Assembly: GCA_043815445.1 (NCBI GenBank)
Contig: JBDRIY010000054.1
Span: 527-64,526, forward strand
Length of the DNA: 64,000 nt
DNA from: Candidatus Omnitrophota bacterium
GTDB taxonomy: Bacteria > Omnitrophota > Gorgyraeia > Duberdicusellales > 4484-171
Direction: 5' to 3'
Below the pieces are notes generated by a model. That model was not told the origin of the DNA and made no database searches. It was given only the letters and a program-made list of their open reading frames with translations. Both the position numbers and the translations under genes were made by a program. Shown here piece by piece: positions 33,075-64,000 of the stretch (position 1 is the stretch's first letter; each line of letters begins with the position of its first letter).

Positions 33075-33075
33075 T

Positions 33076-34179: not shown

Positions 34180-34308
34180 TATTTTCCTAAATCATTTACG
34201 TCTGAAGCGATTATCTAAAATTAGCTTCCCTGCCCTAAAAATTCATACAACAGAACCACAAAGAATAAGTTTTAAAAAATGGCGCAATCAAGCATTTTAT
34301 GCCTATTG

Positions 34309-35358: not shown

Positions 35359-35382
35359 AAAAACTACTTTTCTCTTGGTTAT

Positions 35383-36114
35383 CTATGGCAGTAAATTATA
35401 CTTATTGCCATAGATACCATTGTTAAGTCCAAGTTTATCAATGAGTTGTGAAATTAGCTTTCGGAGGTTTCTCCGTCTAACAGCATAATCAAAAACCGCA
35501 GCAAAATTTATCCTGTAAAGATCGTAAATAAATCCCCATAGCTCCCAATAATCAGCTTCCGGCATTATTCTGTATTTATCTTTAATAACATAAAGATCTA
35601 CCATCATCTTTTCAAGATCCGGCTTATGCCCATTTCTTGGTGACCGGTTAATAAGGGAACGCGCAATAATTGGATTTTTTGTAATGTCAAATCCCGCGGG
35701 AGAATCCTTACTTTTAGTTTCCACGAACACATAGCGGTAAAACTGAGATATTCTATCAGTTACAGGATGAACGCCGTCATATTCAACCTCTACAAAAGTG
35801 ATGTGGTGTGTTTGCTGATGATGATAATAAGGCTGAAAATATAATGTATTCCAAATAAGAAAATCAAGATCAGGAAATTCCTTTTTGATAAGCTGACGAA
35901 TTTTAATAACACGGTTATTTTTCGGACAAATAAATTCCTTTGAAACAGAAGTATATAGACCGCGCCCAGCAGAAAAAACAATTTTTTCGTCTTTAAACGA
36001 CTGTAGATAATTAAGTAACGTCTGCCTTCCAAGCCTCGTATCCTTAACAATCTGCGCTAAAGAAAAATAACGATGATTTCTTATGTATTCTCTAATTAAT
36101 TCTTTTTTATCCAA
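35383..36114 (-). CDS. AbiEi-like antitoxin / transcriptional regulator paired with AbiEii
   Basis: Co-oriented with and immediately upstream of the AbiEii gene. Winged-helix-like N-terminus IREYIRNHRYFSLAQIVKDTRLGRQTLLNYL. Confidence 0.5.
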   Translation of the reverse strand: MDKKELIREYIRNHRYFSLAQIVKDTRLGRQTLLNYLQSFKDEKIVFSAGRGLYTSVSKEFICPKNNRVIKIRQLIKKEFPDLDFLIWNTLYFQPYYHHQQTHHITFVEVEYDGVHPVTDRISQFYRYVFVETKSKDSPAGFDITKNPIIARSLINRSPRNGHKPDLEKMMVDLYVIKDKYRIMPEADYWELWGFIYDLYRINFAAVFDYAVRRRNLRKLISQLIDKLGLNNGIYGNKYNLLP

Positions 36115-36315
36115 AGCTCACCTCGATTTTGATAATTCAAGCTTCTTTGCTCTACACTGGCTATTATAACATTGGGAATTTGAAAAATGAAGAGGCTATT
36201 ACAATGGCCCCCGAAGCCTGCCCTGATTATTATATCGGGATTCCACAAGGATAATGCTAAAGGATAAACAGATATATTTACGGCAAATAACTGGGTCCTC
36301 TTTCCTCTGGTTTGC

Positions 36316-36434
36316 TTGATTAATATCAGTTTTTATCGCCATTGCCTTCCTAAATCATTCGCGCCTGAAGCGATTATCTAAAATTAGCTTCCCTACCTTA
36401 AGAATGTCTACCACAGAGTCACAAAGACACAAAG
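36316..36434. repeat. duplicated copy of the upstream region + first 8 codons of rSAM paralog A (original at 34154..34272)
   Basis: ~110 nt near-identical. Includes atggcgataaaaactgatattaat (MAIKTDIN), with no downstream continuation. Confidence 0.6.
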
Positions 36435-36460
36435 TAGAAACAAACCCCTGTATCTGTCCG

Positions 36461-36895
36461 TTATAGAACCATTCTCTTTACGCCGTTTTTCATTAAATCA
36501 GTATTAAAATTCAAAATTAACCCTATGCTTAATCCTGTTAATTTTAAATAGGTTAGCAATTGCGCTTGATGAACAGGTAAAATATTTTCTACACATTTCA
36601 TTTCAACTATCACTATATTTTCTACAATTAAATCAATCCTGTATTTTTCCGCTAACTTTATGTTTTTGTAAACGATAGGGATCTCTTTTTGCCTTAGATA
36701 CTTAACTTTATTTAATTCAAATTCCTTACATAAACATTCCTCATAGATAGATTCTAATAATCCATGGCCTAAGTGTTTATGAACTTCTATAGCACATTTT
36801 ATTATTTTTTCCGATATTCTATTCCTTAACTCTAATTTATCCATTGTATTCCTCTGTGCCTCCGTGACTCTGTGGTTTAAAGTTTTCATACCCAC
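36461..36895 (-). CDS. GxxExxY-family protein (PD-(D/E)XK-like)
   Basis: HGLLESIYEECL (G-x-x-E-x-x-Y) motif. 144 aa. Confidence 0.65.
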   Translation of the reverse strand: MGMKTLNHRVTEAQRNTMDKLELRNRISEKIIKCAIEVHKHLGHGLLESIYEECLCKEFELNKVKYLRQKEIPIVYKNIKLAEKYRIDLIVENIVIVEMKCVENILPVHQAQLLTYLKLTGLSIGLILNFNTDLMKNGVKRMVL

Positions 36896-36922
36896 TTATG
36901 TATTTTCGCGTAAAATTCCTGA

Positions 36923-38068
36923 TTAATGCCGGTTTTCATCGCCATTTTTCTGTTTATTTTCTAACTCTTCATTTAACGCCCGCGCTAATTCGCAATAATA
37001 AGGAACTGGGGCTTCTTCATCGCCTGTTTCTAAATAGGCTCTGGCCGGGCAGTGATAACAAAGCGCGCGTAACTTACAATCCCTGCATTTTGAGTCAGTT
37101 TTAAATTTCTCGCTTAATAATTTAGGAAATGCTTTATAAAACCCTTCCGCGAACGATACTTTCTTTAAATCCACGCTAAACTTATCAGAAAAAGCGCAAA
37201 ACTTAAGCCGGCCATAAGGATTAATAAAAAACTGGCTCATCCAGGCATTACAGCGGTAAAGAAATTGCCTGTCTCTCTCTAAATCAGGAAAATCATTGTC
37301 TAATCCTTTTTGATACTGCTTCCAAATATCAGAATCCTGCTTTTTCGCCTCTATCAATTCTTGGGCAGAAAGCCTATACTGACAAGGAGTTTTATCTCCA
37401 TTAAACCGGGGGTATATCATTGGATCATATTTAAAATAGTATTTATTCTTTGCCGGTTTTCCCAGAAGTTCTTCAGTAAATTCTTTTATCTTACCGACTT
37501 CATTTTTATTCTGCTTAAGACAATTTGTTTTTAGTATTAAGGGGAGTTTTTTCTTTGCTAATAATTTAACAGTTCTCATCACCTTAGAAAAAGAGCCCTG
37601 AACCTGAGTAATCGCTTCATAAGTTCTTTGGGTTATGCCATTTAAGGTAATTTCTATAGAACAAGGCGGGGATTTAACCAGATAAGAAATGATTTCTTTT
37701 GTAAATTTTTGGCCATTGGTAAAAACAGTTATAATAAATCCTTTTTCTTTAGCATAAGCGTATATCTCTAAAAAATCCTTTCTGATTAAAGGGTCTCCGC
37801 CGGTAAGAGCCAGCCAAAGGCATCCTTGCTTGTGAATTTCATCAAGAATTGTCTTCCATTGCTTTGCGGTTAATTCTTCACCCCTATTTTCGCTCCCTTT
37901 GCAGTAGCAGTGGCCGCAGTTCAAATTGCAGCGATAGGTAAGCTCAATATGCGCGCTCCAAGGATAATGTTCTTTCTTGTTTTGCAGTTTATTATAAAAA
38001 CGGCCGGAGTTTTGAACTTTCATATAAAAAGTTTTTCCTTTATAGACAAACTTAATCTGCGCGCCCAA
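36923..38068 (-). CDS. radical SAM / SPASM-domain peptide-modifying enzyme (paralog C), directly downstream of precursor peptide 1
   Basis: CNLNCGHCYC, GGDPL, SPASM Cys block (CNAW...CAFS...CRDC...CYHCPA). No low-complexity insertion. Confidence 0.85.
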   Translation of the reverse strand: MGAQIKFVYKGKTFYMKVQNSGRFYNKLQNKKEHYPWSAHIELTYRCNLNCGHCYCKGSENRGEELTAKQWKTILDEIHKQGCLWLALTGGDPLIRKDFLEIYAYAKEKGFIITVFTNGQKFTKEIISYLVKSPPCSIEITLNGITQRTYEAITQVQGSFSKVMRTVKLLAKKKLPLILKTNCLKQNKNEVGKIKEFTEELLGKPAKNKYYFKYDPMIYPRFNGDKTPCQYRLSAQELIEAKKQDSDIWKQYQKGLDNDFPDLERDRQFLYRCNAWMSQFFINPYGRLKFCAFSDKFSVDLKKVSFAEGFYKAFPKLLSEKFKTDSKCRDCKLRALCYHCPARAYLETGDEEAPVPYYCELARALNEELENKQKNGDENRH

Positions 38069-46706: not shown

Positions 46707-48292
46707 TCAGTGTATAAAAAATTTATATATTTTAGCTCCTGAACTAACTAAAGGAGCAATTATGCTAATAAACCGGTTAATAAGCCTTGTCTTAACGCTC
46801 TCAAAACTAATTATTTTTTTATTTTTTATAATACCCATAACCTTACCTAAAAACATTTCCTCAGGGACAAGCTGAGCCGCTGATATAGAATTATCTCCAC
46901 GAATATAAAACAACTGTTTATTGCCTTGTTTACTTTTTTTACCAGGCGGTGGCAAACCTTTTGATTATCTTCCTGATATAAAATAATATCTCCTATTTTC
47001 AAACTTTCAGGCAAAATCTTTTTAATTATAAGCTTTTGACCTTGTTTTATGAACGGCCACATACTAAAGCCAGATGTTTCGAAAAAGGATAAATCATTGT
47101 CTAAATCTTTTTCTTTAGCTTTAAACGCTTTAACATTGGCTGTGAACGAGCTTATTACTTTAAAAAACATATAAAATAGGCGGCTTTTATAGAAAAAGTT
47201 AGCTTTTCGGCTATAAGCGTTAAGGCCGTAATAATTAGCAAATTGTTCCTGAGGAATGTTTAAAATATAATTTGCCGGCTCTTTAAACGTATCGTATAAC
47301 AAAAAATGCGATTTAAGATAAAGTTTTTTACGTTGAGTTTGCGCGTCCGGTAAAAAAGTGTATTTTTCTATAAAATTTTGAATTAATTTCTTTTTATATT
47401 TAGAAACATTCAATTCTTTCATCAAACGCTGATAAAAATTCAGGCCGCTAAGAAATTCTACCTGATAAAGAATAAAAAATAAAGCTGAGCAAAGCTCATA
47501 TTTCTTGCTGACATTTAGACAGTATTCCCAATCAAAAGTTTTTTCATACTTATTCAATAATAACGCGGCATCATAAACGTTTTTTAAGGATAATACCTTA
47601 CCAAATCTTCGCGCGTGCAAGGCTAAGCTAAAAAGAGTATCTTCCGGCGAAAGTAGTTTTATCGCCCTGCCTTCTCTATTAACTTCTCGAACCCTGTCCC
47701 AAATTTCCGGCAATATCGCCCTGCCTTTTCGCTTAAAATCAATACCCCAGTGAAGTTCAGTAACACATAATTTATTTTCTTTTTTAAAAACAAAAGTAAT
47801 ATGGCACTGATCTTGTTTCCAATATTCTTCAGTAAAACCGCCTAACTGTTTCTTATACCCTGCATCATATAATATTGACGCCCCCTTTTCAACATCCCCC
47901 TCTTTAACCAAAAAATCTATATCCGTCATCAGCCGCAAAGGCATCCGGATATATATATCCTCAAGCAATGCCGCGCCTTTAAGAGGTAAAAGCATAACTT
48001 CTGCCTGCTCAAAAGCAGTTAATATCCGCAAAAACTCCTGCCGGATACCTTGACAACGAACCAAAGCGCAATAATGGTTATTTTTCAAAAACTCTATTAA
48101 ATCCAAAGGCAACAACGAGCTAAAATCCTTAACTAAAGAATAAACAAAAGGCGTTAATTCATGATAATTAATAAACTCTTTAAATCTTTCCCAATTGATA
48201 GATTGAGAGTTCAATAATGTTTCAATATTATCTTCTTCTACACCAACTAATTTTCTGACAACAGCTTTAATAAACTCTATTTCAGGAATCAT
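46707..48292 (-). pseudogene. PF14907-type nucleotidyltransferase fused to an S24/S26-like peptidase domain, split by a frameshift in an A7/T7 run (~46932..46938)
   Basis: N-terminus LLPLKGAALLEDIYIRMPLRLMTDIDFLV (NTP_transf_5-like). The C-terminus of the 481-aa ORF has GFSMWPF ... IGDIILY ... CHRLVKKV. The overlapping 82-aa ORF continues YIRGDNSISAAQLVPEEMFLGKV (signal-peptidase boxes D and E). Confidence 0.5.
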
Positions 48293-51752: not shown

Positions 51753-52562
51753 CTAGTGGCATAATCCATAAACTAACCGTGGTAAATCATAACATAATAC
51801 CGGGAAAATCTTTAAAGCATATTTGATAAAACCTTCATTTTTAGCTATAGAATAAAATCTATTACACCAGCAAAGATATTGCCGTAACTTTTTGCTGGTT
51901 TTAGAACTATTGCCTTTATGCCAACAGGAAATCCGCGGCATAAATAAAGCTTTATAGCCTCTTTTCTGAGCCCGCCAGGCTAAATCAACATCTTCAACTA
52001 AAAAGAAAAACCTCTGATCAAAATACCCGGTTTTCTCTTTTAACTCCTCAAGCATTTCTCTGTTATAAAAAGCTGCTGCTGAGCAGGCTCCAAAAACATA
52101 CTCAGGCTTACTAAATTTTAAACAATCTTTCTTATTCTTACCAATATCAAAGAACCTCCTGGCCCAAGAAAGGCGCAAGCCGCAAGAATAAATTGTTTTC
52201 TTATCATAATTAAAAATCTTCGGCTGTCCTATTCCTATGTCTAAAGACGCTTTGCCGATTTCCTCTACCGCCTTCAATAAAAAATCTCTCTCCAAAACCA
52301 CATCACAATCTAAAGTCAAAATCCAATCCCCTTTGCTTGCCTCTATCCCCTGATTTCTTCCCCTACAAGCGCCAAGATTTTCTTTGTTCTTAATTAAGAT
52401 AACCTTAGGGTATTTTCCGATTAAATCCGGCGTACCATCACCAGAAGCATTATCTACAACAACTACCTCAAAATTCCGATACCCCTCTTGGCTAAATACC
52501 GAATCCAAACAAGGCTTTATGAACTCTCTGCTATTATGAGTTAAAATTACTACTGAAATCAT
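51753..52562 (-). CDS. GT2-family glycosyltransferase
   Basis: MISVVILTHNSREFIKPCLDSV ... VVVVDNASGDGT. Confidence 0.75.
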   Translation of the reverse strand: MISVVILTHNSREFIKPCLDSVFSQEGYRNFEVVVVDNASGDGTPDLIGKYPKVILIKNKENLGACRGRNQGIEASKGDWILTLDCDVVLERDFLLKAVEEIGKASLDIGIGQPKIFNYDKKTIYSCGLRLSWARRFFDIGKNKKDCLKFSKPEYVFGACSAAAFYNREMLEELKEKTGYFDQRFFFLVEDVDLAWRAQKRGYKALFMPRISCWHKGNSSKTSKKLRQYLCWCNRFYSIAKNEGFIKYALKIFPVLCYDLPRLVYGLCH

Positions 52563-52840
52563 TTTTTAAATAATATTATTGCTATATAGTCCAATCTCTA
52601 AGCAAATTATTTAGTATACTTCTATTTTGTCTATTTATAATAAACAATTATACTCTGCTTTAAACTACCATCAACCTTTTTAAACTATTTGTCAAAATAA
52701 TAACGTAAAACAAAGTGCGCAAGCCAAACACCTACGAGGCGCGGATAAAAAACTTACCCTAACCGCCTCGTAGGCGGCGAAGCGGAAAATAAACACCTTG
52801 ACAAGAAAAATAACAGTTGTATACTCATTTTAGTGAGTAA

Positions 52841-53434
52841 ATGCTTGTTTTAATGAGTGGTAATATAATGACTACGAAATATCTTATTTCCAGCAACTGT
52901 CAAAAAATTTTAAAATACCTCCTTTTAAACTCCGGTAAATCTTGTTATGAACGGGAAATTGCCAGAGGATCCGGGGTTAGCTACGGATCTGCAAACCGCC
53001 TTTTAAACGACTTGTATAAAAAAAGAATTGTTGAAAGAAAAATAGAAGGAAAAATGAATTATTATACAGTAGCCTCATCAAACCCTTATCTTCAAGAATT
53101 TAAAATTCTAATCAATTTATTGCTTCTAGAGCCTTTGATTGAAAAACTTAAACCGTATACCCGTAAAATAGTACTTTTTGGCAGCTGTACCACTGGTGAG
53201 AATACACAAGAAAGTGATATAGACCTTTTTATCTTAACTACCGGAGAAGATATAGTTCGTTCGATAATCAGCAAATATTCTTATTCTCCCAAAATTGCTA
53301 ACAAGAAAATACAGGCTATAATAGAATCACCTGCTGATATGGCAAAAACAGCTAAAGAAAGCAAAGTATTTATAGAGCAAGTAAAAAAAGGGAAAATCCT
53401 TTGGGAAAGTGAAATCAATGAAGATTACCTTTAA
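52841..53434 (+). CDS. minimal nucleotidyltransferase (MNT) with N-terminal winged helix, antitoxin-type partner of HEPN
   Basis: LFGSCTTGENTQESDIDLFIL (GS-x9-11-DxD). Confidence 0.6.
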   Translation: MLVLMSGNIMTTKYLISSNCQKILKYLLLNSGKSCYEREIARGSGVSYGSANRLLNDLYKKRIVERKIEGKMNYYTVASSNPYLQEFKILINLLLLEPLIEKLKPYTRKIVLFGSCTTGENTQESDIDLFILTTGEDIVRSIISKYSYSPKIANKKIQAIIESPADMAKTAKESKVFIEQVKKGKILWESEINEDYL

Positions 53435-53900
53435 AGACTGTTTGGCCCGAAAAAGAATTTTTATTTTTGAAGCGGCAAAACATTTAACTGATCTTGAGAT
53501 TAAAGATGCCGAAGACGATTTACAATCAGCAAAACAAGAGTTTGCTAACTCCGGTTTTAAATGGGCAACCATAAAAGGCTACTACGCGATGTTTCACACT
53601 GCAAGGGCTCTTCTTTATTCCAAAGGATATAGAGAACGCGGCCATTACTGTCTTTATTTAGCAACAAAAGAACTTTTCGTGAAAGACGGCGCCCTTGAAA
53701 ATAATTTAGCCGAAGCCTTCCAACAATCTATGATTTTGCGTGAAGACGCTGACTATAAACGAAACTTCTCAAAAAAGAATGCCTCAGCCGTAATTAAAAA
53801 CGCGAAAAAGCTCCTTAAAGCGGCAAAAGCTATTTTAAAAATAAATAATAAAAAGAAACAGACATTAAAAAAGAAAAAAATCTCTCCTTCCAATCAGTAG
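53409..53900 (+). CDS. HEPN-domain protein (toxin-type partner of MNT)
   Basis: Helical. FHTARALLYSKGYRERGHY R-x-H-type region. 26-nt overlap with the MNT gene. Confidence 0.5.
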   Translation: MKSMKITFKDCLARKRIFIFEAAKHLTDLEIKDAEDDLQSAKQEFANSGFKWATIKGYYAMFHTARALLYSKGYRERGHYCLYLATKELFVKDGALENNLAEAFQQSMILREDADYKRNFSKKNASAVIKNAKKLLKAAKAILKINNKKKQTLKKKKISPSNQ

Positions 53901-53925: not shown

Positions 53926-55281
53926 TTATGCGTTAAAATTATTATCGAGAACAATTCTTATCCTCTCTAATTCACCACTGCTTAAATCTGGTGTTTGGAC
54001 AACACACTTATAATTACCGTCATAACTCTGCCAATCTTCTGAGATGAGCTCTCCTCTATTCTTTAAATATTCAAAATATTCTGTTCCCGGAAAAGGAGTA
54101 GCAAGAGAAAATTGTGATGAATCCGGTTGAACGTCTCTAATAAACTTAACTGTCCTGCGAATAGTTTGTTTTGTTTCTCCGGGTAAGCCTAAACAAAAGG
54201 TCAAATGAACCTTTATGCCAAACTGTTTAGTAAGCCTAATCGCTTGATAAGCTTTATCTAAATCCATATCTTTCCCGCAAGAATTCAATATATTCTGGTC
54301 CCCTGATTCTATTCCATATTTAACCGCGTACAGCCCGGCGCCGGACATAACTTTTAACAAAGATTTATCCATAAGGTCAACTCTGGCCATAATTGCCCAA
54401 GGTATCTTAATTTTTCTTTTTACTATCTCATTACAAATATTTAAAACATAATCTTTATTAATATTAAATACATCATCATCAAAGTATACTGCTTTAAATT
54501 TAAAATTATTAAGTAAATATTCCATTTCATCCACAACATCTACGGGATTTCTCTTTCTATATTTACGTTCTTTATAGATTGTTTGAGGCCAAAGACAAAA
54601 ATTGCATTGGAAGGGGCACCCCCGGCTGGCGCAGATTTGAACATTTGGCACAGGCAAGCCGGCAAAACCATCATTATATTTATAGATATTCATATCCTCT
54701 CTTTCCGGCCAAGGCAAACTGTCAAGGTTATCAATGGCCGGCTGCGAAAAATTGATTTTAATCTCGCCGTCTTCTCGATAAGCTAAGCCTGATACGGATT
54801 TTAAATTTATCTTCTTTTCTAAACAATTTATTAGATTCAATAAAATATATTCATATTCTCCCAATAGTATATACTTAATAATGCTATATTCTCTTAAGAT
54901 TTTTTCGGGAAATACACTGGCTTGAGGCCCGCTTAAGGCTATTTGACAGTCAGGCAAGATATCCCTAATTTTGTGAATAATTCTTAAATCATTCTTAAAC
55001 GACGGGCATGAAGTTTCCACAAGAATAAATTCCGGATTAAAACAGTAAATTTTTTTAAAAAAATTCTCCTCGCTAACGCCTTCGGCAATAGCGTCAAATA
55101 ATTTAACTGATTTCCCTTCTCTTTTCAAAACAGCCGCGGCATAAGCAAGAAAAAAGGGGAAAGGAACATAATGAATACGCCCGTCTTTTTCAGGTAAGGA
55201 GGTAAACGGCCAGCGTGAACCCGCCCTTACTCCCAAACGCTGTTCTTCTCTCCATGGAAGGTTTAATAAAAGTGCCCGCAT
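53926..55281 (-). CDS. B12-binding radical SAM enzyme (class B)
   Basis: N-terminal cobalamin-binding-like domain. ASRGCPFQCNFCLWP (CxxxCxxC). Confidence 0.8.
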   Translation of the reverse strand: MRALLLNLPWREEQRLGVRAGSRWPFTSLPEKDGRIHYVPFPFFLAYAAAVLKREGKSVKLFDAIAEGVSEENFFKKIYCFNPEFILVETSCPSFKNDLRIIHKIRDILPDCQIALSGPQASVFPEKILREYSIIKYILLGEYEYILLNLINCLEKKINLKSVSGLAYREDGEIKINFSQPAIDNLDSLPWPEREDMNIYKYNDGFAGLPVPNVQICASRGCPFQCNFCLWPQTIYKERKYRKRNPVDVVDEMEYLLNNFKFKAVYFDDDVFNINKDYVLNICNEIVKRKIKIPWAIMARVDLMDKSLLKVMSGAGLYAVKYGIESGDQNILNSCGKDMDLDKAYQAIRLTKQFGIKVHLTFCLGLPGETKQTIRRTVKFIRDVQPDSSQFSLATPFPGTEYFEYLKNRGELISEDWQSYDGNYKCVVQTPDLSSGELERIRIVLDNNFNA

Positions 55282-55282
55282 T

Positions 55283-55930
55283 TTATTTCTTAAAATCTAA
55301 ATGCCTTTCGATTTCTTCAAAAAAAACTTTTATTTGATGAATACTTTGATTTATATCTCTCAAATCACAATTCATCTGCTCAAGAATTTGACTTAATTCC
55401 TTCTTCTGATTTTGAGAGCTTCTACCAAGACTAATAAAACCATTCCTTAAAACCTCTTCGGTTTCTTTTGCCTGACTCTGAAAACTTCGGTTGAGGTTGA
55501 TAAAACCGTTCCTTAAGGTTTCTCTGATTTCTTCTGCCTGACTCCCAAGGCTGCCTAAGGCTTTTTTGGTTTCTTCTACCTGATCCTGAGAGCTTTGCTT
55601 GAGGTTGATAAAACCATTCCTTAAGGTTTCTCTGATTTCTTTAATGTTTTGAAAAAACATTTTATCAAAATCATGCATAAAAAAATTCTTAAAATCACAA
55701 AGTATCTGGCCAATATTTCCAAACATCCTAATTGCACAAGCCAATAATAATCCACCCAGTAGTATTGAAATACCCTTTATTAACGAATAAACATCGCCAA
55801 ACTTAAAAATAAAAAAATAAACGGCTATAGAAAACGCTGAAATCGCGGCTATCCACGAAAAAGCTAATAAAATAATGGTTACCGGCATTTTATCTGTCTT
55901 CATTATCACACCTCTCTTTTTTTTATTCAC
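55283..55930 (-). CDS. membrane-anchored tandem-repeat protein (three ~33 aa repeats EIRETLRNGFINL..S.Q.Q)
   Basis: N-terminal TM helix then repeats. Repeat unit homologous to those in 60301..60714. Confidence 0.45.
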   Translation of the reverse strand: MNKKKRGVIMKTDKMPVTIILLAFSWIAAISAFSIAVYFFIFKFGDVYSLIKGISILLGGLLLACAIRMFGNIGQILCDFKNFFMHDFDKMFFQNIKEIRETLRNGFINLKQSSQDQVEETKKALGSLGSQAEEIRETLRNGFINLNRSFQSQAKETEEVLRNGFISLGRSSQNQKKELSQILEQMNCDLRDINQSIHQIKVFFEEIERHLDFKK

Positions 55931-57206
55931 CCATATTTTCCGCGGAAGACTGAATCATCCGGATTGCCTCAGGATGATCAAAGGCTAAACTATTTAGCCA
56001 TTTTTTAAAATCAAAAGATAGTTTTCTTAAAAATATATTGTTAAGATTAGAATGGTTGACCTTGTAAAACCGGCTCCAATCATAACGCGATTCTGTTAAA
56101 TCTAATAATTTATCCAAAAAAATATTATCTGTTATTGAATAAACTGAAAATAATAAGTGCCTGTATAATATTTTTTTGAATTTACGGCTCACAAATTTTT
56201 CCCGAATAATTTTCCCTAAAACTAAATTTAAAGCAAAAAAATTCTGTAAAAACATATTGGCTTTGGGCATCAAGGTAACAATTTCTTTTTTCTCAAGGCT
56301 GAAACGATAAAACAAAGATAAATCTATTAAAGAAAACCAAAAAGATGAGATAGAATAATTTGGTTTTTGAATTTTTTGATAAGTGAAGTATTCTAAATCC
56401 TTTAAGGAATTATGCAGGCCTAATAAAAAATCTAAATAAAGTAACTGATGTTGATTGGAAATGATATCTTCATGTATATAGCGGTTTGCTAAACCAACAT
56501 TCTCTCTTAACTTACGAGAAAACCCTTTGGGGCTGGAATAACACCCCTTTTTTTGATGAAAAGCTAAATTCCACTTCCAATAATTATTTAAAACCGAACA
56601 AACATTATCGCGTTTTAAATGCTTGACCGTTGCCTTAGGCTCATAAACTAAACTATACCCTTTTTTCTTAAGACGCTCGCAAATATCAACATCCTCATAG
56701 TTATCCCTAAAATTTTCACTATAAACCCCAACCTCTGTTAAAGCTTGACGGCGAAAAACTGTATTAGAGCCAAATAAAAAAGGAGGAGCTGACTCTCCTT
56801 CTGCCCAATATTGTTTCATATGCACTGCGCGCCATAAATCAAATGTTGTAGAAAGATTCTTTTCTAAAAGCTTTCCTCCTGTTCCTGCTATATCTGAAGA
56901 AGTAAATCTTTTCATCAGCGTCTCCAGCCAGCCGGGCTCAGGGGCGCAATCAGCGTCTAAAGAAGCGATGTATTTAGAATCTATATTTTTTACTGCTGTA
57001 TTTCTGGCAACAGCTAAACCTCTATTATGCTTATGCCTTATAAGCTTTATCGGGTAAGGTGAAACCTTTTCAACTGTCCTGTCACTTGAATTATCATCTA
57101 CGATAACAACCTCATCAGGCTTAAGAGTTTGACTAAATACTCCTTTAAGAGTATCTTCTATATAGCTTTCAGCGTTAAAACAGGGGATATACAGACTGAT
57201 TTTCAT
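55923..57206 (-). CDS. GT2-family glycosyltransferase with C-terminal extension
   Basis: MKISLYIPCFNAESYIEDTL ... VVIVDDNSSDRT ... DADC. Confidence 0.7.
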   Translation of the reverse strand: MKISLYIPCFNAESYIEDTLKGVFSQTLKPDEVVIVDDNSSDRTVEKVSPYPIKLIRHKHNRGLAVARNTAVKNIDSKYIASLDADCAPEPGWLETLMKRFTSSDIAGTGGKLLEKNLSTTFDLWRAVHMKQYWAEGESAPPFLFGSNTVFRRQALTEVGVYSENFRDNYEDVDICERLKKKGYSLVYEPKATVKHLKRDNVCSVLNNYWKWNLAFHQKKGCYSSPKGFSRKLRENVGLANRYIHEDIISNQHQLLYLDFLLGLHNSLKDLEYFTYQKIQKPNYSISSFWFSLIDLSLFYRFSLEKKEIVTLMPKANMFLQNFFALNLVLGKIIREKFVSRKFKKILYRHLLFSVYSITDNIFLDKLLDLTESRYDWSRFYKVNHSNLNNIFLRKLSFDFKKWLNSLAFDHPEAIRMIQSSAENMGE

Positions 57207-58438
57207 TTCAATTTAGCTATTTCCTTATTCAACCTTTTCTTTAATAAGCTAATTTCTTCAAGAGATTTCTCAATTTGACCTTTATTGTTTATATTTCTAA
57301 CACTCATTTTTCTTTGAACATTTTTAAATATCCTATTAAAAATATTTCTAAACGAACCTCGGTAAGAATTATAAAACTTGCACCTTAATTTTAATTGCAC
57401 AGTTCTTTTTCTTAAATACCGTGTAAGTTTATCAATTAACTTTTGAGCGGAAATATTTTTTATTTTTCTGAATAAATTAAGAAAATACTTCTCTTCTCTA
57501 TTTTGGCCAAACACACCGTCATAACAACTCATCATACAGCTGCGGCACCCTTCATCAACTATTAACTCTCTTATGCCGCTATGTTCTCTTGAATACCATA
57601 ATTCAAAAAAGCTATTTTTCCCCACATTACCAATCTGTTTCTTCTTATCTATAATAGCCCAGCAGGGAAAAATATCACCGCAGGCGTTTATAGGGCAAGA
57701 AGTCCAAAGAGCGTTACAGCCATTTCGAAAAGCTATTTTTTTACCGCTTAGGTAAAAAGGAATAGCTCTAAGATAATTTGTGGGGTTGGTGGAAATTTTA
57801 TATTTTTTACTTAATTCAATAACTTTTTCAAATATTGCCTCTACTTTTTTTATCTGTTTCTTATTTATAAAAAAACTGCTCTTTAAAGATTCATTATCCA
57901 TAAAAATTACGCTAAAAGGTTGAAATCTTATAGTGCTTGCCCCGTATTTTTTTGCTAATTCTACAATATAAGGCATAGAGTTGTAATTATGTTTTGATAC
58001 CATAACCGCTATGGTAGATTCAACCCCATATTTCCTTAAATTTTCTAAAGCCTTAACTGCTCTTTTAAAGGTTCCTTGCCCTCTTAAATAATTATGAATT
58101 TCTTCAGGCCCCTCTAAAGAAACATTAACCACATTAACCCCTGACGCGGCAAGCTTACCAGCGGCTTTTTCATCTAATAAATAACCGTTAGAAGTAAGGC
58201 AGGCATTCATCCGGTTATCTTTTGCCGCCGTAATAAGCTCAAATATGTCCTCTCTTAATAAAGGCTCCCCGCCGCTGAATACTATAGTTTCCGCGCCGAT
58301 TAAAGAAGCTTCCTCAATAACCTGCTTCCATTGAAAAGTATCCAGTTCCTCCATAAGATTAACCGGAATATCACACATCTTACATTTTAAATTACAACGG
58401 TTAGTTATTGATATAATAACTTCTTTTAGCCTAAGCAT
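57203..58438 (-). CDS. radical SAM / SPASM-domain enzyme
   Basis: CNLKCKMC, GGEPLL, C-terminal CNALWTSCPINACGDIFPCW. Confidence 0.8.
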   Translation of the reverse strand: MLRLKEVIISITNRCNLKCKMCDIPVNLMEELDTFQWKQVIEEASLIGAETIVFSGGEPLLREDIFELITAAKDNRMNACLTSNGYLLDEKAAGKLAASGVNVVNVSLEGPEEIHNYLRGQGTFKRAVKALENLRKYGVESTIAVMVSKHNYNSMPYIVELAKKYGASTIRFQPFSVIFMDNESLKSSFFINKKQIKKVEAIFEKVIELSKKYKISTNPTNYLRAIPFYLSGKKIAFRNGCNALWTSCPINACGDIFPCWAIIDKKKQIGNVGKNSFFELWYSREHSGIRELIVDEGCRSCMMSCYDGVFGQNREEKYFLNLFRKIKNISAQKLIDKLTRYLRKRTVQLKLRCKFYNSYRGSFRNIFNRIFKNVQRKMSVRNINNKGQIEKSLEEISLLKKRLNKEIAKLK

Positions 58439-59570
58439 CCTTGTAACCCTTTACCTTATCTTCATATCTCTCTAATATCTTCAAAGCCTGTTTTAAAAAT
58501 TCACCTTTATCTTTATTGTTTTTTACACTGTCTATAAAATTATCTATTATCTCGGGCAAAGAATCAGACTCGGGATGAGCCCAGCAAGTTTGTAGGCAGG
58601 GCTTAGGGCAAGACTTCATTAGTTTTCTGGCCTTAAACGCTTCTTCCGTGTTTAAACAACTTTTCATATCCATTTCTTTTATATTACCGAAGCTGGCCCC
58701 GCAGCTTCTCATTTCAGCGTCAGGGCCTACATTTATAAAGGCAAAAGGGTTACACTTCCAATCCTTTTTAGTCAAGTTTCCTCTAAAATATTTAATCCAA
58801 AGATAAGGATTATGCAAAAAAGCTACCAGCCCATTCTTTCTTTTATAAGCAATGATTTTATCAATTTGTTTCTCTAAAAATTTTAACCCCTCTTCCTTTA
58901 TCCAAAAAGGCGCGCTGGAAGAGGTATTTTGCATATCAGCCTGAGCTACGATTACCGGATGATAAACAAGACACTCTACCCCTAAATCTCTAACCAAATA
59001 AATAATATCAGATAGCTCATCCATGTTTTCCTTCATTATTGTCGTCCAAACTGATATTTGAGGCCCAGACTTTATCTTTTGTTTTACCTCTACAAGATTT
59101 TTGATGGCCTTTACAGCTTTTTTAAAACTTCCTTTTTCTCTTATAAAATCATGGGTATCCTCTTTTGCTCCATCTAAAGAAATAGCGATATTTCCTAATC
59201 CCGACGAAATAATCTTAAAAGCTAATTCTTCATTTATTAACGCTCCGTTAGAAACCGCCTCAGTTTCTATCCCTTTGATGACAGAAGAATTTATTATTTC
59301 AAAAATATCTTTCCGCAAAAAAGGCTCTCCTCCAGTAATAACTACTGTGCGATTACGCGGCCACAGAGCAATCTGCTCAAAAGCTCTTTCCAATACCTCT
59401 TTAGACAATTCATAACCCTTTAAAGTTTTAACAACCATACACATTCGGCAATTATAAGTGCAGTTATGGCTTAAGCTAATATACACCCATCGAGGCTGAA
59501 CCAGCGGCTGTTCCAAAACCTCGGAAAAATGATAAGCCAAATTAACCTCAAATTCCTTAAGATAATTCAT
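58431..59570 (-). CDS. radical SAM / SPASM-domain enzyme
   Basis: CTYNCRMC, GGEPFL, C-terminal CGASFG ... CPKPCLQTCW. Confidence 0.8.
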   Translation of the reverse strand: MNYLKEFEVNLAYHFSEVLEQPLVQPRWVYISLSHNCTYNCRMCMVVKTLKGYELSKEVLERAFEQIALWPRNRTVVITGGEPFLRKDIFEIINSSVIKGIETEAVSNGALINEELAFKIISSGLGNIAISLDGAKEDTHDFIREKGSFKKAVKAIKNLVEVKQKIKSGPQISVWTTIMKENMDELSDIIYLVRDLGVECLVYHPVIVAQADMQNTSSSAPFWIKEEGLKFLEKQIDKIIAYKRKNGLVAFLHNPYLWIKYFRGNLTKKDWKCNPFAFINVGPDAEMRSCGASFGNIKEMDMKSCLNTEEAFKARKLMKSCPKPCLQTCWAHPESDSLPEIIDNFIDSVKNNKDKGEFLKQALKILERYEDKVKGYKDA

Positions 59571-60272
59571 TTATTTCCTTGCCAAAAAGGTAATTGCTGG
59601 GCTACCTTTATGATTTTCTTTCCGGATTACTTCAATCTTTTTAAAGCCTACATTTCTTACCATTGTAAGCATATCATCCTCTAACATCCGAAACGAGTTC
59701 TGATGCAAACCAGAAAGGCAATTTTGAAGGTCTTCTTTTACATGCTTGCCTCGATAAACACAGCCTTGATAATCCATCTCTATTATGGGGCCGTGAGGGT
59801 CATCTCTAACAGCGTAATGCGTCCAGACAAATAAATTATCAGTAAGCTGAGCAACGCGGGAAAGAACAGAAACGGGATTCTCCAAATGGTAAAGAATACC
59901 TGAGGCAAAACATAAGCCAAACGGTCCGGATAAAACCGGCAATATATCATTTAAATCTCCTAATAAAAATTTGCACTTATCTAAAGATAAAGCATTCTTT
60001 ACGATTAAACACTTTAAGAAATTTTCTATTCTTCCTTCAATGGCAATAACCTCTTTTGCTCCTAAAGCTTGAAGCATAGAAGAATGTGACCCCTCTAAAC
60101 AGCCTAATTCTAAAACCCGAAAACCTTTCAAACTTATTCTTTTAGCTAATTCATTAATTCGAGATTCAGGATCAAGGTTTAAATGCCCGCCTTCAATAGC
60201 TAATTGTTCTAAACGCAGCTTACAAAACCAATCTTTATAAATTTGAAAACCATACAATTCCCTTATATCCAT
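59571..60272 (-). CDS. class I SAM-dependent methyltransferase
   Basis: VLELGCLEGSHS (motif I). Confidence 0.55.
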   Translation of the reverse strand: MDIRELYGFQIYKDWFCKLRLEQLAIEGGHLNLDPESRINELAKRISLKGFRVLELGCLEGSHSSMLQALGAKEVIAIEGRIENFLKCLIVKNALSLDKCKFLLGDLNDILPVLSGPFGLCFASGILYHLENPVSVLSRVAQLTDNLFVWTHYAVRDDPHGPIIEMDYQGCVYRGKHVKEDLQNCLSGLHQNSFRMLEDDMLTMVRNVGFKKIEVIRKENHKGSPAITFLARK

Positions 60273-60300
60273 TGTTCTCTCCTACTCCTGCACTCCAAGT

Positions 60301-60714
60301 TTATTTTATGCTTTTAGAGCTTTGATCGGAAATCTTAACTATCTTCTGCGTTTGACTAATATAAGTCTGAGTATTCTTATCTATTATATCTGACAAAATC
60401 GCTAAATCTCTGCTTAAGTTTCTGGCGACTTTCTCTAAAATCTTGAATTGAACCTCCATAGATTCTCTTAATTCTTTTGTGTGTACCCTTAAAAGATGAA
60501 TTATCTGCTTTTCTATCCTGTCACTACAAGAATTAATAGTAATATTTAACTGCTCAAATTGAACATCGAGACATTCCCTTAATTCCTTCGTATGCGCCCC
60601 TGCAAGGTGAATTATCTGATCTTCCAACCTATTATTACAAGAATTAATATTACTGTTTAATGCCTCAAATTGAACCTCAATGCATTTTTCTAATTCTCTC
60701 TGCGCTCTACCCAT
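60301..60714 (-). CDS. small tandem-repeat protein (three ~38 aa repeats ELREC(L/M)DVQFEQLN.TINSC...QIIHL..HTK)
   Basis: Repeats visible by eye. Paralogous to the 55283..55930 repeats. Confidence 0.45.
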   Translation of the reverse strand: MGRAQRELEKCIEVQFEALNSNINSCNNRLEDQIIHLAGAHTKELRECLDVQFEQLNITINSCSDRIEKQIIHLLRVHTKELRESMEVQFKILEKVARNLSRDLAILSDIIDKNTQTYISQTQKIVKISDQSSKSIK

Positions 60715-60716
60715 TT

Positions 60717-62129
60717 TTAACTCTCCTTTAATCTAATTAAATTATTAAAAGGTATCTTAACTTTATCACCCAAAGATTCCCTAATAAATTCTAACTTCTC
60801 TAACCTTGCTTGAAAATAATTTTTTTCACCCTCAATTAACCAGCCATTGGTTCTGTTTCTGTTTAAAATAAAGATTCCAAAAGTCTTCCTTTCCCGATAA
60901 AGAAGAGAAGAAGGCATTAACACTAAAGAATGGAGATAAACTGTATCTATAAATTCAAGATTTCTTTTTAGAAAATTCACTGTTAAATTAATATCTTCCC
61001 ATGTTTCTTCGGGGAACCCAACGATTATATTAATACTTGAAGAAATCCCCGCTTTTTTTGTATTTTGAATTACTTCTTCGGCTAAGATAGTAGAAAAATT
61101 CTTTCTCATTAATTTTAAAATCTTAGGGCTGGCGCTCTCCAAGCCATAACTTACCGATGAAAAACCAGCTTTTTTCATTTTTTTTAAAAATTCAAAATTC
61201 ATTCCTTCTCTAATCATTGCCTGGCCGCTCCAGGTAAACTTTGTATTTTTCTCTATAATTAAATCAACTAACTTACATAAATTTTTCATATCGCCGTTAA
61301 CAAGAGAGTCATTAAAAAAGAAATATTCAGCTTGATGGTTATTCTTTAACTGATAATCTATCTCCGCGTAAATATTGGCAGCCTCTCTTCTTCTATATTT
61401 TCCCCATAATATTGATTCCTCGCAAAAAGAACAACAATTAATACACCCCCTGCTGGTAGAAATAGGCACCCCAGTTTCATCATATAACCGTAAATCAAAA
61501 TCCTTAAAATCAGCAAAAGGCAAAGAATCAAGATTATCAACAAGATCTTGCTTGCCGCAATTTATAATTTTACCATTACTGTCCTTATATATAAATCCCG
61601 GGCAATAGCCAATGCGGCCTTTATTATCTTTAATAGTATTTACTAAATTATTAAAAACTACTTCTCCTTCCTGAAGGCATACAGCATCAACATTATGATT
61701 TTGTAAAAATTCAATGGCAAAATTTTCCCTAAAACAACTTATCCCCCCAGCTACTGTCTTTACTGCCGGAGATTTCTCCTTAATTCTGGAAGCAATTTCC
61801 CCGCTAAACCACCGGGAAGTGTCATAAATAGTAAACCCTGCTATTTGGATATCTTTTTCTAAAACTTCATCTATCAGTTGATTAATATAATAATCATATT
61901 CTTTTATAAATCTTAATACCGAATCTCTATCATACCAATCTATATCCTCATTCTCTGCTCCAGAGGAAGATGATTTCTTTTTAAATTCAGAATACCTTTG
62001 CAATTTGACATTAAAATCATAACACAAAACGCTATGACCTTCTTTTTTTAAACATGCCGACAACAAAGCTATGCTATAGGGCGGTGTCATTACGCTCCAA
62101 AAAGGGCATTGAATTAAAGCTATATTCAT
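60717..62129 (-). CDS. B12-binding radical SAM enzyme (class B)
   Basis: N-terminal B12-binding-like domain. TSRGCINCCSFCEE. Confidence 0.8.
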   Translation of the reverse strand: MNIALIQCPFWSVMTPPYSIALLSACLKKEGHSVLCYDFNVKLQRYSEFKKKSSSSGAENEDIDWYDRDSVLRFIKEYDYYINQLIDEVLEKDIQIAGFTIYDTSRWFSGEIASRIKEKSPAVKTVAGGISCFRENFAIEFLQNHNVDAVCLQEGEVVFNNLVNTIKDNKGRIGYCPGFIYKDSNGKIINCGKQDLVDNLDSLPFADFKDFDLRLYDETGVPISTSRGCINCCSFCEESILWGKYRRREAANIYAEIDYQLKNNHQAEYFFFNDSLVNGDMKNLCKLVDLIIEKNTKFTWSGQAMIREGMNFEFLKKMKKAGFSSVSYGLESASPKILKLMRKNFSTILAEEVIQNTKKAGISSSINIIVGFPEETWEDINLTVNFLKRNLEFIDTVYLHSLVLMPSSLLYRERKTFGIFILNRNRTNGWLIEGEKNYFQARLEKLEFIRESLGDKVKIPFNNLIRLKES

Positions 62130-62144
62130 TTTTAATTTTGCTTT

Positions 62145-64000
62145 TTAGCTAACCAGCTTATAGTTTACATACCAAGCTTGGAACATCAAGTAAGTTCTTA
62201 TTTTTTTTCTATTGTCTCTCTTACCTGACAGGTGCTCATTAAATAAATAGTTGACATAATCATAGTTAAAAATATTTTGTTTAATTATAAAATTCTTATT
62301 AAAAAATTCTTCCACAATTCCAAAGAATTTTTTATCTCTAAGCCAATCAGAAAAAGGAATAGGAAAGCCTTTTTTTGGCCGAGATAAGATTTGTTTCGGT
62401 AGAATTCCGGCCATAGCTTCCTTTAATAGCTTTTTTTGATATATAAATTCAGGCCTAAGGCTTAAAGTAAATTCAACCAATTGATGATCTAAGTAAGGCA
62501 CCCTCACTTCTAAAGAAGAAAACATACCGGCTCTATCAGATTTAACCAGTAAATCATCACAAAGATAAGTGGAGATATCTAAATGCTGAATAATTCGGCT
62601 GCAAGAACTGGATTCTAAATCTCTAAAGCTCTTAGCAAAATCATCAACAGTCTCACAACCTATACTTCTATTAAAAAGACACTCCTTCTCACTGCTTGAA
62701 AATGCCCCCATCCATAAAAGATGCCTTAAAATAAGGTCTTGAATATTCGCTCCTCTAATGAACTGTTTTAATTTAAAATCTATGCTGAAATATTTATCAG
62801 AAGCTGGCAATAAATCTATTAAGCGTTTGCTTATTTTTTGAAACATCTGAGGAAATTTATTGAATAATTTTATGTACTTGTGGGCAATGTAAGTTGGATA
62901 TCCCATAAATAATTCATCCGCGCCTTCTCCGGATAAAGCAACCTTTATGTGTTTACGGGAAAATTTAGAAAGAAAGTAGGTAGGAAATATGGACATATCA
63001 GCGAATGGTTCATCTAAAAGGCTTGTTACTTCATGAAAACTACCTATAAAGTCATCTATAGTAAAAGTATACGCGTAATGGCTGGTTCCCAGGTATTTTG
63101 CCGCAAGAAAAGCATATCTTGACTCATCAAATGTTTTTTCTTTAAAGCCTATAGAAAAAGTAGAGAGACGCTGGGCGCGCGATTTCTTTGCTAATACCGC
63201 TAAACTGATAGAATCTATTCCTCCGCTTAAAAATACCCCTAAAGGAACGTCACTTATAAGATGCTCTTTTACTGAATTGTAAAGAAGGTTCTTCAGCTCT
63301 TCTTTTGCCTCATAAAAAGATATTTTATTATTAACAGCGCATTCGCCTAAATTCCAATAACGTTGAACTTCAACATTATTGTCTTTACAGAAAATATAAT
63401 GAGCCGGCTTAAGTTTATGGATATTTTTAAAAATAGAATAAGGACAGGGAACATACTCTAAAGAAAAATATAAGTCTAAAGCCTTACTGTCTAATTTTTT
63501 CTCTATAAAAGGCAGCTTTAGTAAAGCTTTTAGCTCTGAAGAAAAGGCGAATATTCCATCTTTATTATAATAATATAAAGGTTTAATCCCAAATCTATCC
63601 CTTGCTATAAAAAGGCGCTTCTTAACCTTATCCCATAAAGCAAAAGCAAACATTCCTTTTATATATTTAAGACAGTTTGGGCCGTACTCTTCATAAAGAT
63701 GAACTAATACTTCAGAATCAGTATCAGTGTAAAAAATATGACCTTTCTTTATTAAGTTATCTTTTAACAGATAAAAATTATACAGCTCTCCATTGCATAC
63801 TACTGCTAAACTTTTATCTTCATTAAATATCGTCTGGGAACCCATTTTTAAACCTATAATACTCAGCCTTCTTATACCCAACGAAATGTTTTCATCAAGA
63901 TGCTTCCCTTTTTCGTCAGGACCGCGATGGTATAAAATACCAAGCATATCATCTATAAACCTGTTTCTTTTCTCTAAACTTAATCCTTTTATCCCGCAAA
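62145..64000 (-). CDS. asparagine synthase (glutamine-hydrolysing) family amidotransferase, N-terminus beyond window end
   Basis: Reading frame is open to the window edge (..CGIKGLSLEKRNRFIDDMLGILYHRGPDEKG). Class-II glutaminase Cys-Gly-Ile and HRGPD motifs. SGGIDSS PP-loop. Confidence 0.85.
   Translation of the reverse strand, partial: CGIKGLSLEKRNRFIDDMLGILYHRGPDEKGKHLDENISLGIRRLSIIGLKMGSQTIFNEDKSLAVVCNGELYNFYLLKDNLIKKGHIFYTDTDSEVLVHLYEEYGPNCLKYIKGMFAFALWDKVKKRLFIARDRFGIKPLYYYNKDGIFAFSSELKALLKLPFIEKKLDSKALDLYFSLEYVPCPYSIFKNIHKLKPAHYIFCKDNNVEVQRYWNLGECAVNNKISFYEAKEELKNLLYNSVKEHLISDVPLGVFLSGGIDSISLAVLAKKSRAQRLSTFSIGFKEKTFDESRYAFLAAKYLGTSHYAYTFTIDDFIGSFHEVTSLLDEPFADMSIFPTYFLSKFSRKHIKVALSGEGADELFMGYPTYIAHKYIKLFNKFPQMFQKISKRLIDLLPASDKYFSIDFKLKQFIRGANIQDLILRHLLWMGAFSSSEKECLFNRSIGCETVDDFAKSFRDLESSSCSRIIQHLDISTYLCDDLLVKSDRAGMFSSLEVRVPYLDHQLVEFTLSLRPEFIYQKKLLKEAMAGILPKQILSRPKKGFPIPFSDWLRDKKFFGIVEEFFNKNFIIKQNIFNYDYVNYLFNEHLSGKRDNRKKIRTYLMFQAWYVNYKLVS

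Follow-up and report, generated by a model that had tools for sequence, protein, structure and literature searches.

The 64,000-nt stretch of DNA analyzed here (hereafter, the window) comes from a metagenome-assembled genome (MAG) of a Candidatus Omnitrophota bacterium. Positions 53926–64000 encode two small repeat proteins, RepA and RepB, among radical S-adenosylmethionine (SAM) enzymes (rSAMs) and a glycosyltransferase (GT); RepA is 100% identical to the NCBI entry ABIH08_03920 and RepB to ABIH08_03895. Look-ups by exact sequence for the two window proteins returned no record. A first-pass annotation, made from the sequence alone, had described this region as one operon of eleven genes with overlapping or 1–3 nt junctions. 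We found nine genes, all on the minus strand and head-to-tail, with junctions of 0–28 nt: AsnB, B12rSAM_8, RepA, a class-I methyltransferase, rSAM_5, rSAM/SPASM_4, the glycosyltransferase GT2, RepB, and B12rSAM_1 (Table 1). The reading as a single operon gains from this layout and from a gene order conserved in 21 related loci. As had been proposed, each repeat protein gene adjoins the gene of a B12-binding rSAM, with a gap of 2 nt for RepA and 1 nt for RepB. Promoter and terminator scans inside the operon returned nothing beyond background.

RepB most likely begins at ATG 55903, which is preceded by a Shine-Dalgarno site (AGAGAGG), with an alternative GTG start at 55930; the 206-aa NCBI model and the alignment of the family concur with the ATG. 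With this start, the supposed 55923/55930 overlap with GT2 is probably a 19-nt spacer. The AsnB reading frame encodes an in-frame peptide (CGIKGLSLEK...) upstream of the ATG at 63947.

Table 1. Coordinates of the genes and features of the module in the window; core and accessory refer to the module conserved among related loci (TM, transmembrane; AF2, AlphaFold2)
Feature	Position	Strand	Basis
AsnB-type glutamine-dependent amidotransferase	62145..64000, beyond window end	-	Asn_synthase, GATase_7
B12rSAM_8, B12-binding radical SAM enzyme, accessory	60717..62129	-	PF02310 + PF04055
RepA, 137-aa all-helical repeat protein with conserved C-terminal segment, no TM anchor	60301..60714	-	repeat statistics
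Class-I SAM methyltransferase (Methyltransf_9/11-like), accessory	59571..60272	-	domain scan
rSAM_5, radical SAM enzyme with SPASM/twitch-like auxiliary domain, core	58431..59570	-	PF04055, conserved Cys
rSAM_SPASM_4 (rSAM/SPASM_4), core	57203..58438	-	PF04055 + SPASM
GT2 glycosyltransferase, core, always directly upstream of RepB	55923..57206	-	PF00535
RepB, 206-aa membrane protein, core	55283..55903	-	family, AF2 model, Shine-Dalgarno site
RepB TM hairpin (~aa 7-62) and juxtamembrane motif IRMFGNIGQxxxDF	55694..55885	-	conserved columns, AF2
RepB tandem-repeat stalk, 63-nt core x3, spacings 66 + 108 nt	55406..55642	-	self-comparison
RepB conserved C-terminal helix LEQMNCDLRDINQSIHQIKVFFEEIERHLDFKK, proposed docking tip	55286..55384	-	conserved columns
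B12rSAM_1, HpnJ/AprD4-like, core, always directly downstream of RepB	53926..55281	-	PF02310 + PF04055, TIGR03471
MNT (nucleotidyltransferase) + HEPN pair, not part of the module	52841..53900	+	Polbeta/NTP_transf_2, HEPN domains
GT2b, second GT2, core, displaced by MNT/HEPN	51753..52562	-	PF00535 113.4

A conserved module in the Omnitrophota

Related loci (L numbers; P numbers denote homologous proteins) were gathered from a RepB-seeded genome scan (14 loci), from RepA-seeded searches, and from four loci reached via GT2 homologues, and their genes were mapped by blastp. The 14 RepB-seeded loci all belong to Omnitrophota MAGs, some of which are labelled Planctomycetia. Wherever the contig suffices, the genes follow a fixed order, rSAM_5, rSAM/SPASM_4, GT2, RepB, HpnJ-like B12-rSAM, and GT2b, with enzyme identities of 43–69% among loci. 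All 21 related loci show RepB among its expected neighbours, as far as the contigs extend: it is flanked by GT2 and the HpnJ-like B12-rSAM in 16 of them (L019 and L020, the same sequence twice, counted once), and the contig ends on one side of RepB in L013, L015, L018, and L022. The four loci reached via GT2, and thus independently of RepB, all carry an open reading frame (ORF) of the RepB family in the matching slot. A second GT2b paralogue often comes after GT2b, together with a Wzy_C gene. Judged by this synteny, the module behaves as one conserved operon-like unit. We found no description of the module or of the RepB family in the literature searched, and neither is described in the Pfam and NCBIfam libraries; both are consistent with known principles of glycan assembly.

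Orthologues of GT2b (50–61% identity) directly follow the B12-rSAM in L002, L004, L005, L008, L010–L012, L014–L019, and L023. In the window, the MNT/HEPN pair separates the two genes. In the other loci that have both, the B12-rSAM gene and GT2b touch or overlap, except in L006, where ~2.6 kb and another ORF lie between them, and in L021, where a PAPS-reductase-like gene occupies that position. Since most related loci lack such a separation, MNT/HEPN resembles an insertion into the operon of a toxin-antitoxin or defence cassette. Ahead of it lies the strongest promoter-like match in the region (52798–52825, 11/12 positions).

The shared sequence of L019 and L020 (1–21323), one record of which is labelled 'Patescibacteria group bacterium', carries fifteen radical SAM genes, six of them B12-binding, in 21 kb around the GT2-RepB-B12-rSAM core, which is an exceptional density for rSAM genes.

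The RepB family

A HMMER scan of 1.84 billion representative proteins, clustered at 50% identity, places RepB in a family of 138 clusters, 87 of them below 1e-10, which occurs only in Omnitrophota and is unannotated. Its members share an architecture: a conserved N-terminal hairpin of two TM helices ending in IRMFxNIGQxxFD, a variable middle region that ranges from absent to ~300 aa, and a conserved tip, EQINCDSKDINQNIHQIKTFFEQIERHLDLKK. The AF2 model of RepB (mean confidence, pLDDT, 92.6) has a helix at residues 7–33, a 4-residue turn, and an unbroken helix at 38–201, that is, a TM hairpin followed by a single helix of ~140 residues. The membrane anchor predicted at first reading is thus borne out.

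The middle region, or stalk, is where the repeats lie. RepB carries the unit E-I-R-E-T-L-R-N-G-F-I-N-L three times, at spacings of 36 and 22 aa (self-comparison score 96 vs 28.7 +/- 4.5 for shuffled sequences), and the units of other members differ in sequence and number, with periods of 11, 22/55, and 51 aa next to the 36/22 aa of the window; P0014, for example, has ten 11-aa units, L002 has 22/55-aa units, and L018 has 51-aa units. Orthologous stalks are tandem repeats also at the DNA level, with units of 33, 66/165, and 153 nt and identities of up to 98–100%, and the region that corresponds to the window RepB stalk holds unrelated repeats, or none, in orthologues. Repeat-less members span 86–128 aa, among them the stalk-free P0080 (86 aa) and L021 (106 aa), and they keep all rSAM neighbours. 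When 40 sequences are aligned, all invariant and near-invariant columns fall in the TM hairpin region (P7, S16, R59, Q66, and F69) or in the last 13 residues (near-invariant F194, F195, I198, E199, H201, and L202), and none falls in the repeats. The C-terminal helix of 33 aa is retained even in the minimal members of 86–106 aa.

Scaffold gaps (runs of N) lie inside the repeat stalks of several assemblies: in the RepA orthologue of L001 (~9850–10000) and in the RepB gene of L012, L014, L016, and L017. Published MAGs therefore probably under-report repeat numbers, and the near-identical DNA repeats together with these gaps suggest that the stalk is continually expanded and replaced. Two or three copies of the C-terminal 'NCDSKD...FFEQIE' motif occur in P0008, P0011, P0016, and L011 (5551–6129), which indicates that the tip, too, can duplicate.

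In most RepB members the C-terminal helix contains Cys-X3-Asp (NCDSKD), the motif cross-linked by PapB-type maturases of ranthipeptides. The Cys is missing from L017, L018, L023, P0025, P0053, P0080, and P0082, of which L017, L018, and L023 retain the module, and a PapB-like thioether site was accordingly rejected as a general feature of the RepB tip.

Pfam matches to the RepB stalk are of the coiled-coil and apolipoprotein type and are all sub-threshold. Across the family, DUF948, DUF1664, and apolipoprotein-like models match weakly in 14/40, 13/40, and 7/40 members through the amphipathic repeats. For the window RepB all of these lie under the gathering scores and cover only the variable stalk, leaving the hairpin and the C-terminal motif uncovered.

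RepA and its lineage

RepA has a period of 37 aa (self-diagonal score 169 vs 26.5 +/- 3.7 for shuffles) and contains two full repeats plus a partial third of ~14 aa; the DNA units of 111 nt are 76–80% identical. The first-pass annotation had given both proteins three homologous repeats of ~33–38 aa and had called them paralogues. Internal repeats are significant in both, and RepB does have three copies, at less regular spacings; RepA falls short of a full third. Paralogy of RepA and RepB is unproven by sequence: BLASTP between them gives E = 1.0, the cross-diagonal score of 38 lies within the shuffle range (30.6 +/- 4.6), and a hidden Markov model (HMM) of the RepB unit matched nothing in RepA. 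An ungapped position-specific scoring matrix of the unit gives p ~0.02–0.07, and hhalign returns a probability of 62%, for the TM region only.

Homologues of RepA are P0002–P0004 and L024 only, and a metagenome scan added only the sister lineage already known. RepA, the methyltransferase, and B12rSAM_8 are all confined to the window and this one sister lineage: orthologues of the methyltransferase (61% identity) follow RepA in L001–L003 and L024, and those of B12rSAM_8 (56–59%) are found in L001, L003, and L024. P0002, P0004, and L024 have an N-terminal anchor of two TM segments and a repeat number different from that of the window RepA. The gene call for P0003 is cut short where the L001 assembly has a gap, and its TM segment is found in a separate ORF upstream. 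Cys residues of RepA are not conserved among the homologues.

We also considered RepA and the methyltransferase as a split WbdD, and rejected this: the sole fused methyltransferase, in L009, has an rSAM/SPASM enzyme as its fusion partner rather than a coiled coil.

The radical SAM enzymes and AsnB

Pfam and NCBIfam scans of the nine proteins, with curated scores as equivalog cut-offs, recovered AsnB, two B12-binding rSAMs, the methyltransferase, and GT2, as first annotated; one of the two enzymes that had been called SPASM rSAMs passes the Pfam SPASM threshold. The four rSAMs of the operon (the window holds seven) comprise two with B12-binding and Radical_SAM domains, one with Radical_SAM and SPASM domains, and one with a Radical_SAM domain. 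B12rSAM_1 (34.5) and B12rSAM_8 (33.2) exceed the PF02310 cut-off of 32.1 and score 68.7 each for PF04055; by domain content they are class B rSAMs, those with a B12-binding domain. The best curated family for B12rSAM_1 is TIGR03471 (HpnJ), matched over the full length at 286.3 bits (E = 4.6e-85; cut-off 577.6), and its closest solved relative is AprD4 (6fd2, E = 1.7e-30); identity among loci is 54–69%. B12rSAM_8 finds its best NCBIfam match in TIGR03975 (140.6; cut-off 281.85).

rSAM_SPASM_4 scores 100.6 for PF04055 and 27.7 for SPASM (PF13186; cut-off 21.5), with the CxxxCxxC motif at residues 15–22 and seven additional Cys kept in 14/14 orthologues. rSAM_5 (PF04055, 84.1; CxxxCxxC at residues 37–44; 52–69% identity among loci) is not matched by Pfam SPASM; it has seven additional Cys in a SPASM-like layout, kept in 11–12/12 orthologues. 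Going by their sequences, both are SPASM/twitch enzymes, with a C-terminal Cys-rich auxiliary domain after the rSAM core. The closest solved relative of each is BlsE (7vob; E = 6.7e-15 for rSAM_SPASM_4 and 3.1e-10 for rSAM_5), and BtrN is among the nearest solved relatives of the auxiliary domain of the core rSAMs.

None of the nine proteins matched, at E <= 0.01, a PqqD or recognition element (RRE) domain of ribosomally synthesized and post-translationally modified peptide (RiPP) systems, and rSAM_SPASM_4 and rSAM_5 have no room for an N-terminal RRE, since CxxxCxxC begins at residue 15 and 37, respectively. No rSAM reaches any curated NCBIfam equivalog cut-off, and so none is assigned to a known cofactor, lipid, or RiPP pathway. 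The first-pass annotation had staked its reading on the repeat proteins keeping rSAM neighbours and on the rSAMs falling outside known cofactor or lipid pathways; it is not contradicted on either count, as the repeat proteins co-occur with B12-rSAMs and the equivalog cut-offs are not reached.

AsnB matches Asn_synthase (299 bits) and GATase_7 in Pfam and TIGR01536 at 464 (cut-off 267.1); its best match is an exopolysaccharide-associated amidotransferase family, TIGR03108, at 487, under the cut-off of 817. With its Cys nucleophile, GATase domain, and Asn_synthase domain, it is by sequence a member of the glutamine-hydrolysing asparagine synthase B superfamily. We regard it as accessory, outside the core, because it is absent at the corresponding position in L001.

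Glycosyltransferases and gene fusions

GT2 (PF00535, 118.9) consists of a GT-A domain (residues 1–200) and a family-specific all-alpha C-terminal domain (residues 200–427), and its AF2 model has a pLDDT of 92.3. It has 411 homologues, of which the best 120 are full length. Foldseek returns generic GT-A/GT2 matches only, with neither ArnC nor GtrB among the top 50, and sequence matches in the PDB are likewise generic (chondroitin synthase, 70 bits; DPMS, 34.5 bits). The HpnI model does not match GT2. We considered whether GT2 and RepB form a split polyprenyl-phosphate glycosyltransferase of the ArnC/GtrB/DPMS kind. GT2 is unlike these enzymes by sequence or fold, and Foldseek matches between the RepB hairpin and ArnC are non-significant (E = 4–7); the idea was dropped because GT2 has only generic GT2 structural neighbours.

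Several sister loci carry, a few genes upstream of the core module, genes in which the enzyme types of the module are fused. Proteins joining GT2 to an rSAM(/SPASM) enzyme, 630–644 aa long, are encoded in L001 (1–1421), L006 (377–2287), L012 (3247–5181), and L013 (165–2057), and a 658-aa fusion of an rSAM/SPASM enzyme with a class-I methyltransferase domain is found in L009 (1988–3964).

One protein, P0098 (506 aa), appears to join GT2 to the TM hairpin of RepB, and its sequence diverges beyond NIGQ. We set it aside as Rosetta-stone evidence, as the junction and the divergent tail resemble frameshifts between closely spaced genes.

Proposed function of the repeat proteins

We propose, with a probability of about 50%, that RepB, and probably RepA too, is a tether or scaffold in a pathway for rSAM-tailored surface glycans, and not a multi-site substrate of the rSAMs. 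That the repeat proteins are not enzymes, as first suggested, agrees with the lack of a catalytic domain in either. Of the two roles then left to them, substrate or scaffold, the second is favoured: the repeats are dispensable and unconserved, there is no RRE, and the relatives of the rSAMs act on sugars. The link to a glycan pathway that had been seen in the neighbouring genes also stands, with the module lying inside a glycan island (the surrounding 25–64 kb) that encodes Wzy_C, a WecA-like GT4, a GT1, three GT-C/PMT_2 proteins, an ATP-binding cassette (ABC) exporter of the MsbA/HlyB type (not Wzm/Wzt), three further rSAMs, and tetratricopeptide repeat (TPR) proteins.

In the proposed mechanism, the module would work on the cytoplasmic side of the inner membrane, where it would build and tailor a sugar of a lipid-linked surface glycan. 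The hairpin would fix RepB in the membrane, and the second TM helix would run on into the cytoplasm as a long helix, probably oligomerised into a coiled coil, whose length would be set by the fast-evolving tandem repeats. The amphipathic 33-aa tip may dock one or more soluble partners, either GT2, with its all-alpha domain, or the adjacent B12-rSAM, and so keep them close to the membrane-bound substrate or a set distance away. RepA would be the analogous stalk protein for the accessory pair of B12-rSAM and methyltransferase.

Sugar chemistry is favoured by the similarity of the core rSAMs to AprD4, BlsE, and BtrN, by HpnJ as the best match of B12rSAM_1, and by the GT2-rSAM fusions. AprD4, BlsE, and BtrN, from nucleoside and aminoglycoside pathways, are the nearest solved relatives of the three core rSAMs and catalyse radical reactions of sugar rings. 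They resemble the module enzymes only distantly, however (E of 1e-10 to 1e-30, with partial coverage), and the substrates of these enzymes are soluble antibiotic intermediates rather than surface-glycan precursors, with no membrane stalk as partner; AprD4, the closest to B12rSAM_1, is a dehydratase and not a methylase. The HpnI-HpnK-HpnJ pathway of hopanoid head groups offers a second parallel. There, a GT2 enzyme attaches N-acetylglucosamine to a lipid, and HpnJ, an rSAM of the B12 type, rearranges the lipid-bound aminosugar (PMC12324291); B12rSAM_1 matches HpnJ over its full length and is likewise paired with GT2 enzymes at the membrane. It reaches only about half of the HpnJ equivalog cut-off, though, GT2 has no HpnI match, and no equivalog of SHC, HpnG, HpnK, or HpnH is found among the annotated genes of the window or in the conserved module. 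With the score under the cut-off and the remaining pathway absent, we rejected the hopanoid pathway itself.

Extended coiled coils are a hallmark of cytoplasmic complexes for glycan assembly and termination (PMC11231755). The rulers WbdD and WbbB (E. coli O9a; Klebsiella O3/O4/O7/O12) resemble RepB in being membrane-associated, cytoplasmic, extended coiled coils encoded in a glycan-assembly cluster, the orientation and the coil of RepB being predicted. Both systems are linked to glycosyltransferases and methyl-adding enzymes, with modules on separate polypeptides (PMC11231755). The modelled helix at 38–201 after the hairpin and the glycan context fit this class. RepB differs in lacking a catalytic domain, as does RepA, in its N-terminal TM hairpin in place of a C-terminal amphipathic helix, in a stalk of none to ~300 aa, in its radical SAM partners, and in showing no similarity to the rulers in sequence or fold.

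These comparisons bear on three other explanations. A sharper form of the tether proposal, which we consider unlikely, makes RepB a chain-length ruler of the WbdD/WbbB type, whose stalk would set the length of the glycan before an enzyme at the distal tip (the B12-rSAM or the methyltransferase) caps or modifies it, so that gain and loss of repeats would adjust glycan length from strain to strain. Coiled-coil rulers do operate in ABC-transporter-dependent O-antigen assembly, with a distal terminator and with modules variably split among polypeptides (PMC11231755); RepB length is highly variable through in-frame tandem repeats, methyl-adding enzymes flank RepA and RepB, and the island encodes an ABC exporter. 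Every known ruler, however, carries the terminator itself, whereas RepB has no fused catalytic domain, some members are stalk-free (86–106 aa), and the exporter is of the wrong type; the Wzy_C genes that accompany the module suggest a Wzy- or ligase-type route instead. It is quite unlikely, in our estimate, that RepB is a small membrane subunit that binds either the polyprenyl-phosphate carrier or a membrane partner, for example Wzy or a flippase, with a cytoplasmic helix that is largely neutral and drifting. The hairpin, with the invariant S16 and R59, and the IRMFxNIGQ motif are indeed the most strongly conserved parts, the smallest members are nearly hairpin alone (P0080, 86 aa), Wzy_C frequently adjoins the module, and the TM hairpin of ArnC recurs among the RepB Foldseek matches, non-significantly (E = 4–7). 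Against this, the tip FFExIExHLxLKK is conserved like the hairpin and is retained in the minimal members, which places the cytoplasmic end under selection, and GT2 is not ArnC/GtrB/DPMS-like.

The remaining explanation, that RepB, RepA, or both are ribosomal substrates of the adjoining rSAMs, appears very unlikely. The repeats would then be multi-site cores, or the C-terminal peptide the target. RiPP systems (PapB ranthipeptides, proteusins, and sactipeptides) do have small non-enzymatic ORFs beside SPASM and B12 rSAMs, with a conserved terminus and a variable middle. RepB strictly co-occurs with two auxiliary-cluster rSAMs and a B12-rSAM, its conserved end and hypervariable middle recall a leader or follower with a core, Cys-X3-Asp is present in most tips, and the best family for B12rSAM_8 is that of a RiPP C-methyltransferase (TIGR03975, 140 bits). 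Yet the repeat-less members keep all their rSAM neighbours, so the middle is dispensable, and no residue of the repeats is conserved; nor is there a conserved modifiable residue elsewhere, given that the Cys of the tip is absent in several RepB members and that those of RepA are unconserved. The core has no RRE/PqqD domain, leader peptidase, or dedicated exporter, all matches to RiPP maturase families are far under their cut-offs, the GT2-rSAM fusions in sister loci point to sugars, and a precursor of 200–385 aa anchored by two TM helices would be atypical.

The tether proposal has its own difficulties. The window RepA has lost the TM anchor of its homologues and so cannot serve as a membrane tether here. 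A stalk that ranges from 0 to ~300 aa is hard to square with a single fixed geometry. Foldseek matches to RepB are all non-significant (best E = 0.88), docking of RepB to an enzyme is putative, and the sole GT2-RepB fusion, P0098, may be a frameshift artefact. The N-in/C-in topology follows from the positive-inside rule and from the enzymes being cytoplasmic, and, with every rSAM under the curated cut-offs, the sugar chemistry is a prediction.

Other features of the window

The region at 30889–38068 is probably what the first-pass annotation, in speaking of a second modification operon, had counted as the first. It comprises a ScmC/HprK-related protein (30889–31857), two adjacent rSAMs (31908–34179), an AbiEii/DUF6577/PDDEXK_3 block (34309–36895), and a further rSAM (36923–38068); here again, defence or toxin-antitoxin genes are interspersed among rSAM genes. 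At the edge of the glycan island (20848–25142), two large ORFs of 401 and 984 aa with no Pfam match lie between a LacI-type regulator and Wzy_C, and within it an NTP_transf_5 protein with a weak signal-peptidase-I-like C-terminal stretch (46847–48292) is found among the GT-C/PMT_2 and TPR genes. Farther away, an intein that includes a LAGLIDADG homing endonuclease domain interrupts a ribonucleotide reductase large subunit (1197 aa; 15837–19430).

Implications

RepB is an unannotated family with a clear division of labour: a conserved anchor, a conserved tip, and a free-running stalk. For annotation, it cautions that a small repeat ORF beside SPASM and B12 rSAMs is not automatically a RiPP precursor. 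Little work has addressed the tailoring of cell-surface glycans by radical SAM enzymes; some of the related loci carry more than 12 rSAM genes, and the six-gene core represents a tractable and widespread Omnitrophota pathway. A broader proposal, which we hold possible though doubtful, is that the module belongs to a phylum-wide, undescribed glycan route in which many rSAMs tailor sugars and are organised on a stand-alone, TM-anchored coiled-coil RepB with a slippage-prone stalk, a detachable and evolvable ruler or tether. If true, this would be the first such ruler both to lack an enzyme domain and to serve radical SAM chemistry. If RepB is indeed a tether or ruler, the principle of coiled-coil rulers in O-antigen assembly would extend to a component that is non-catalytic and encoded by a gene of its own.

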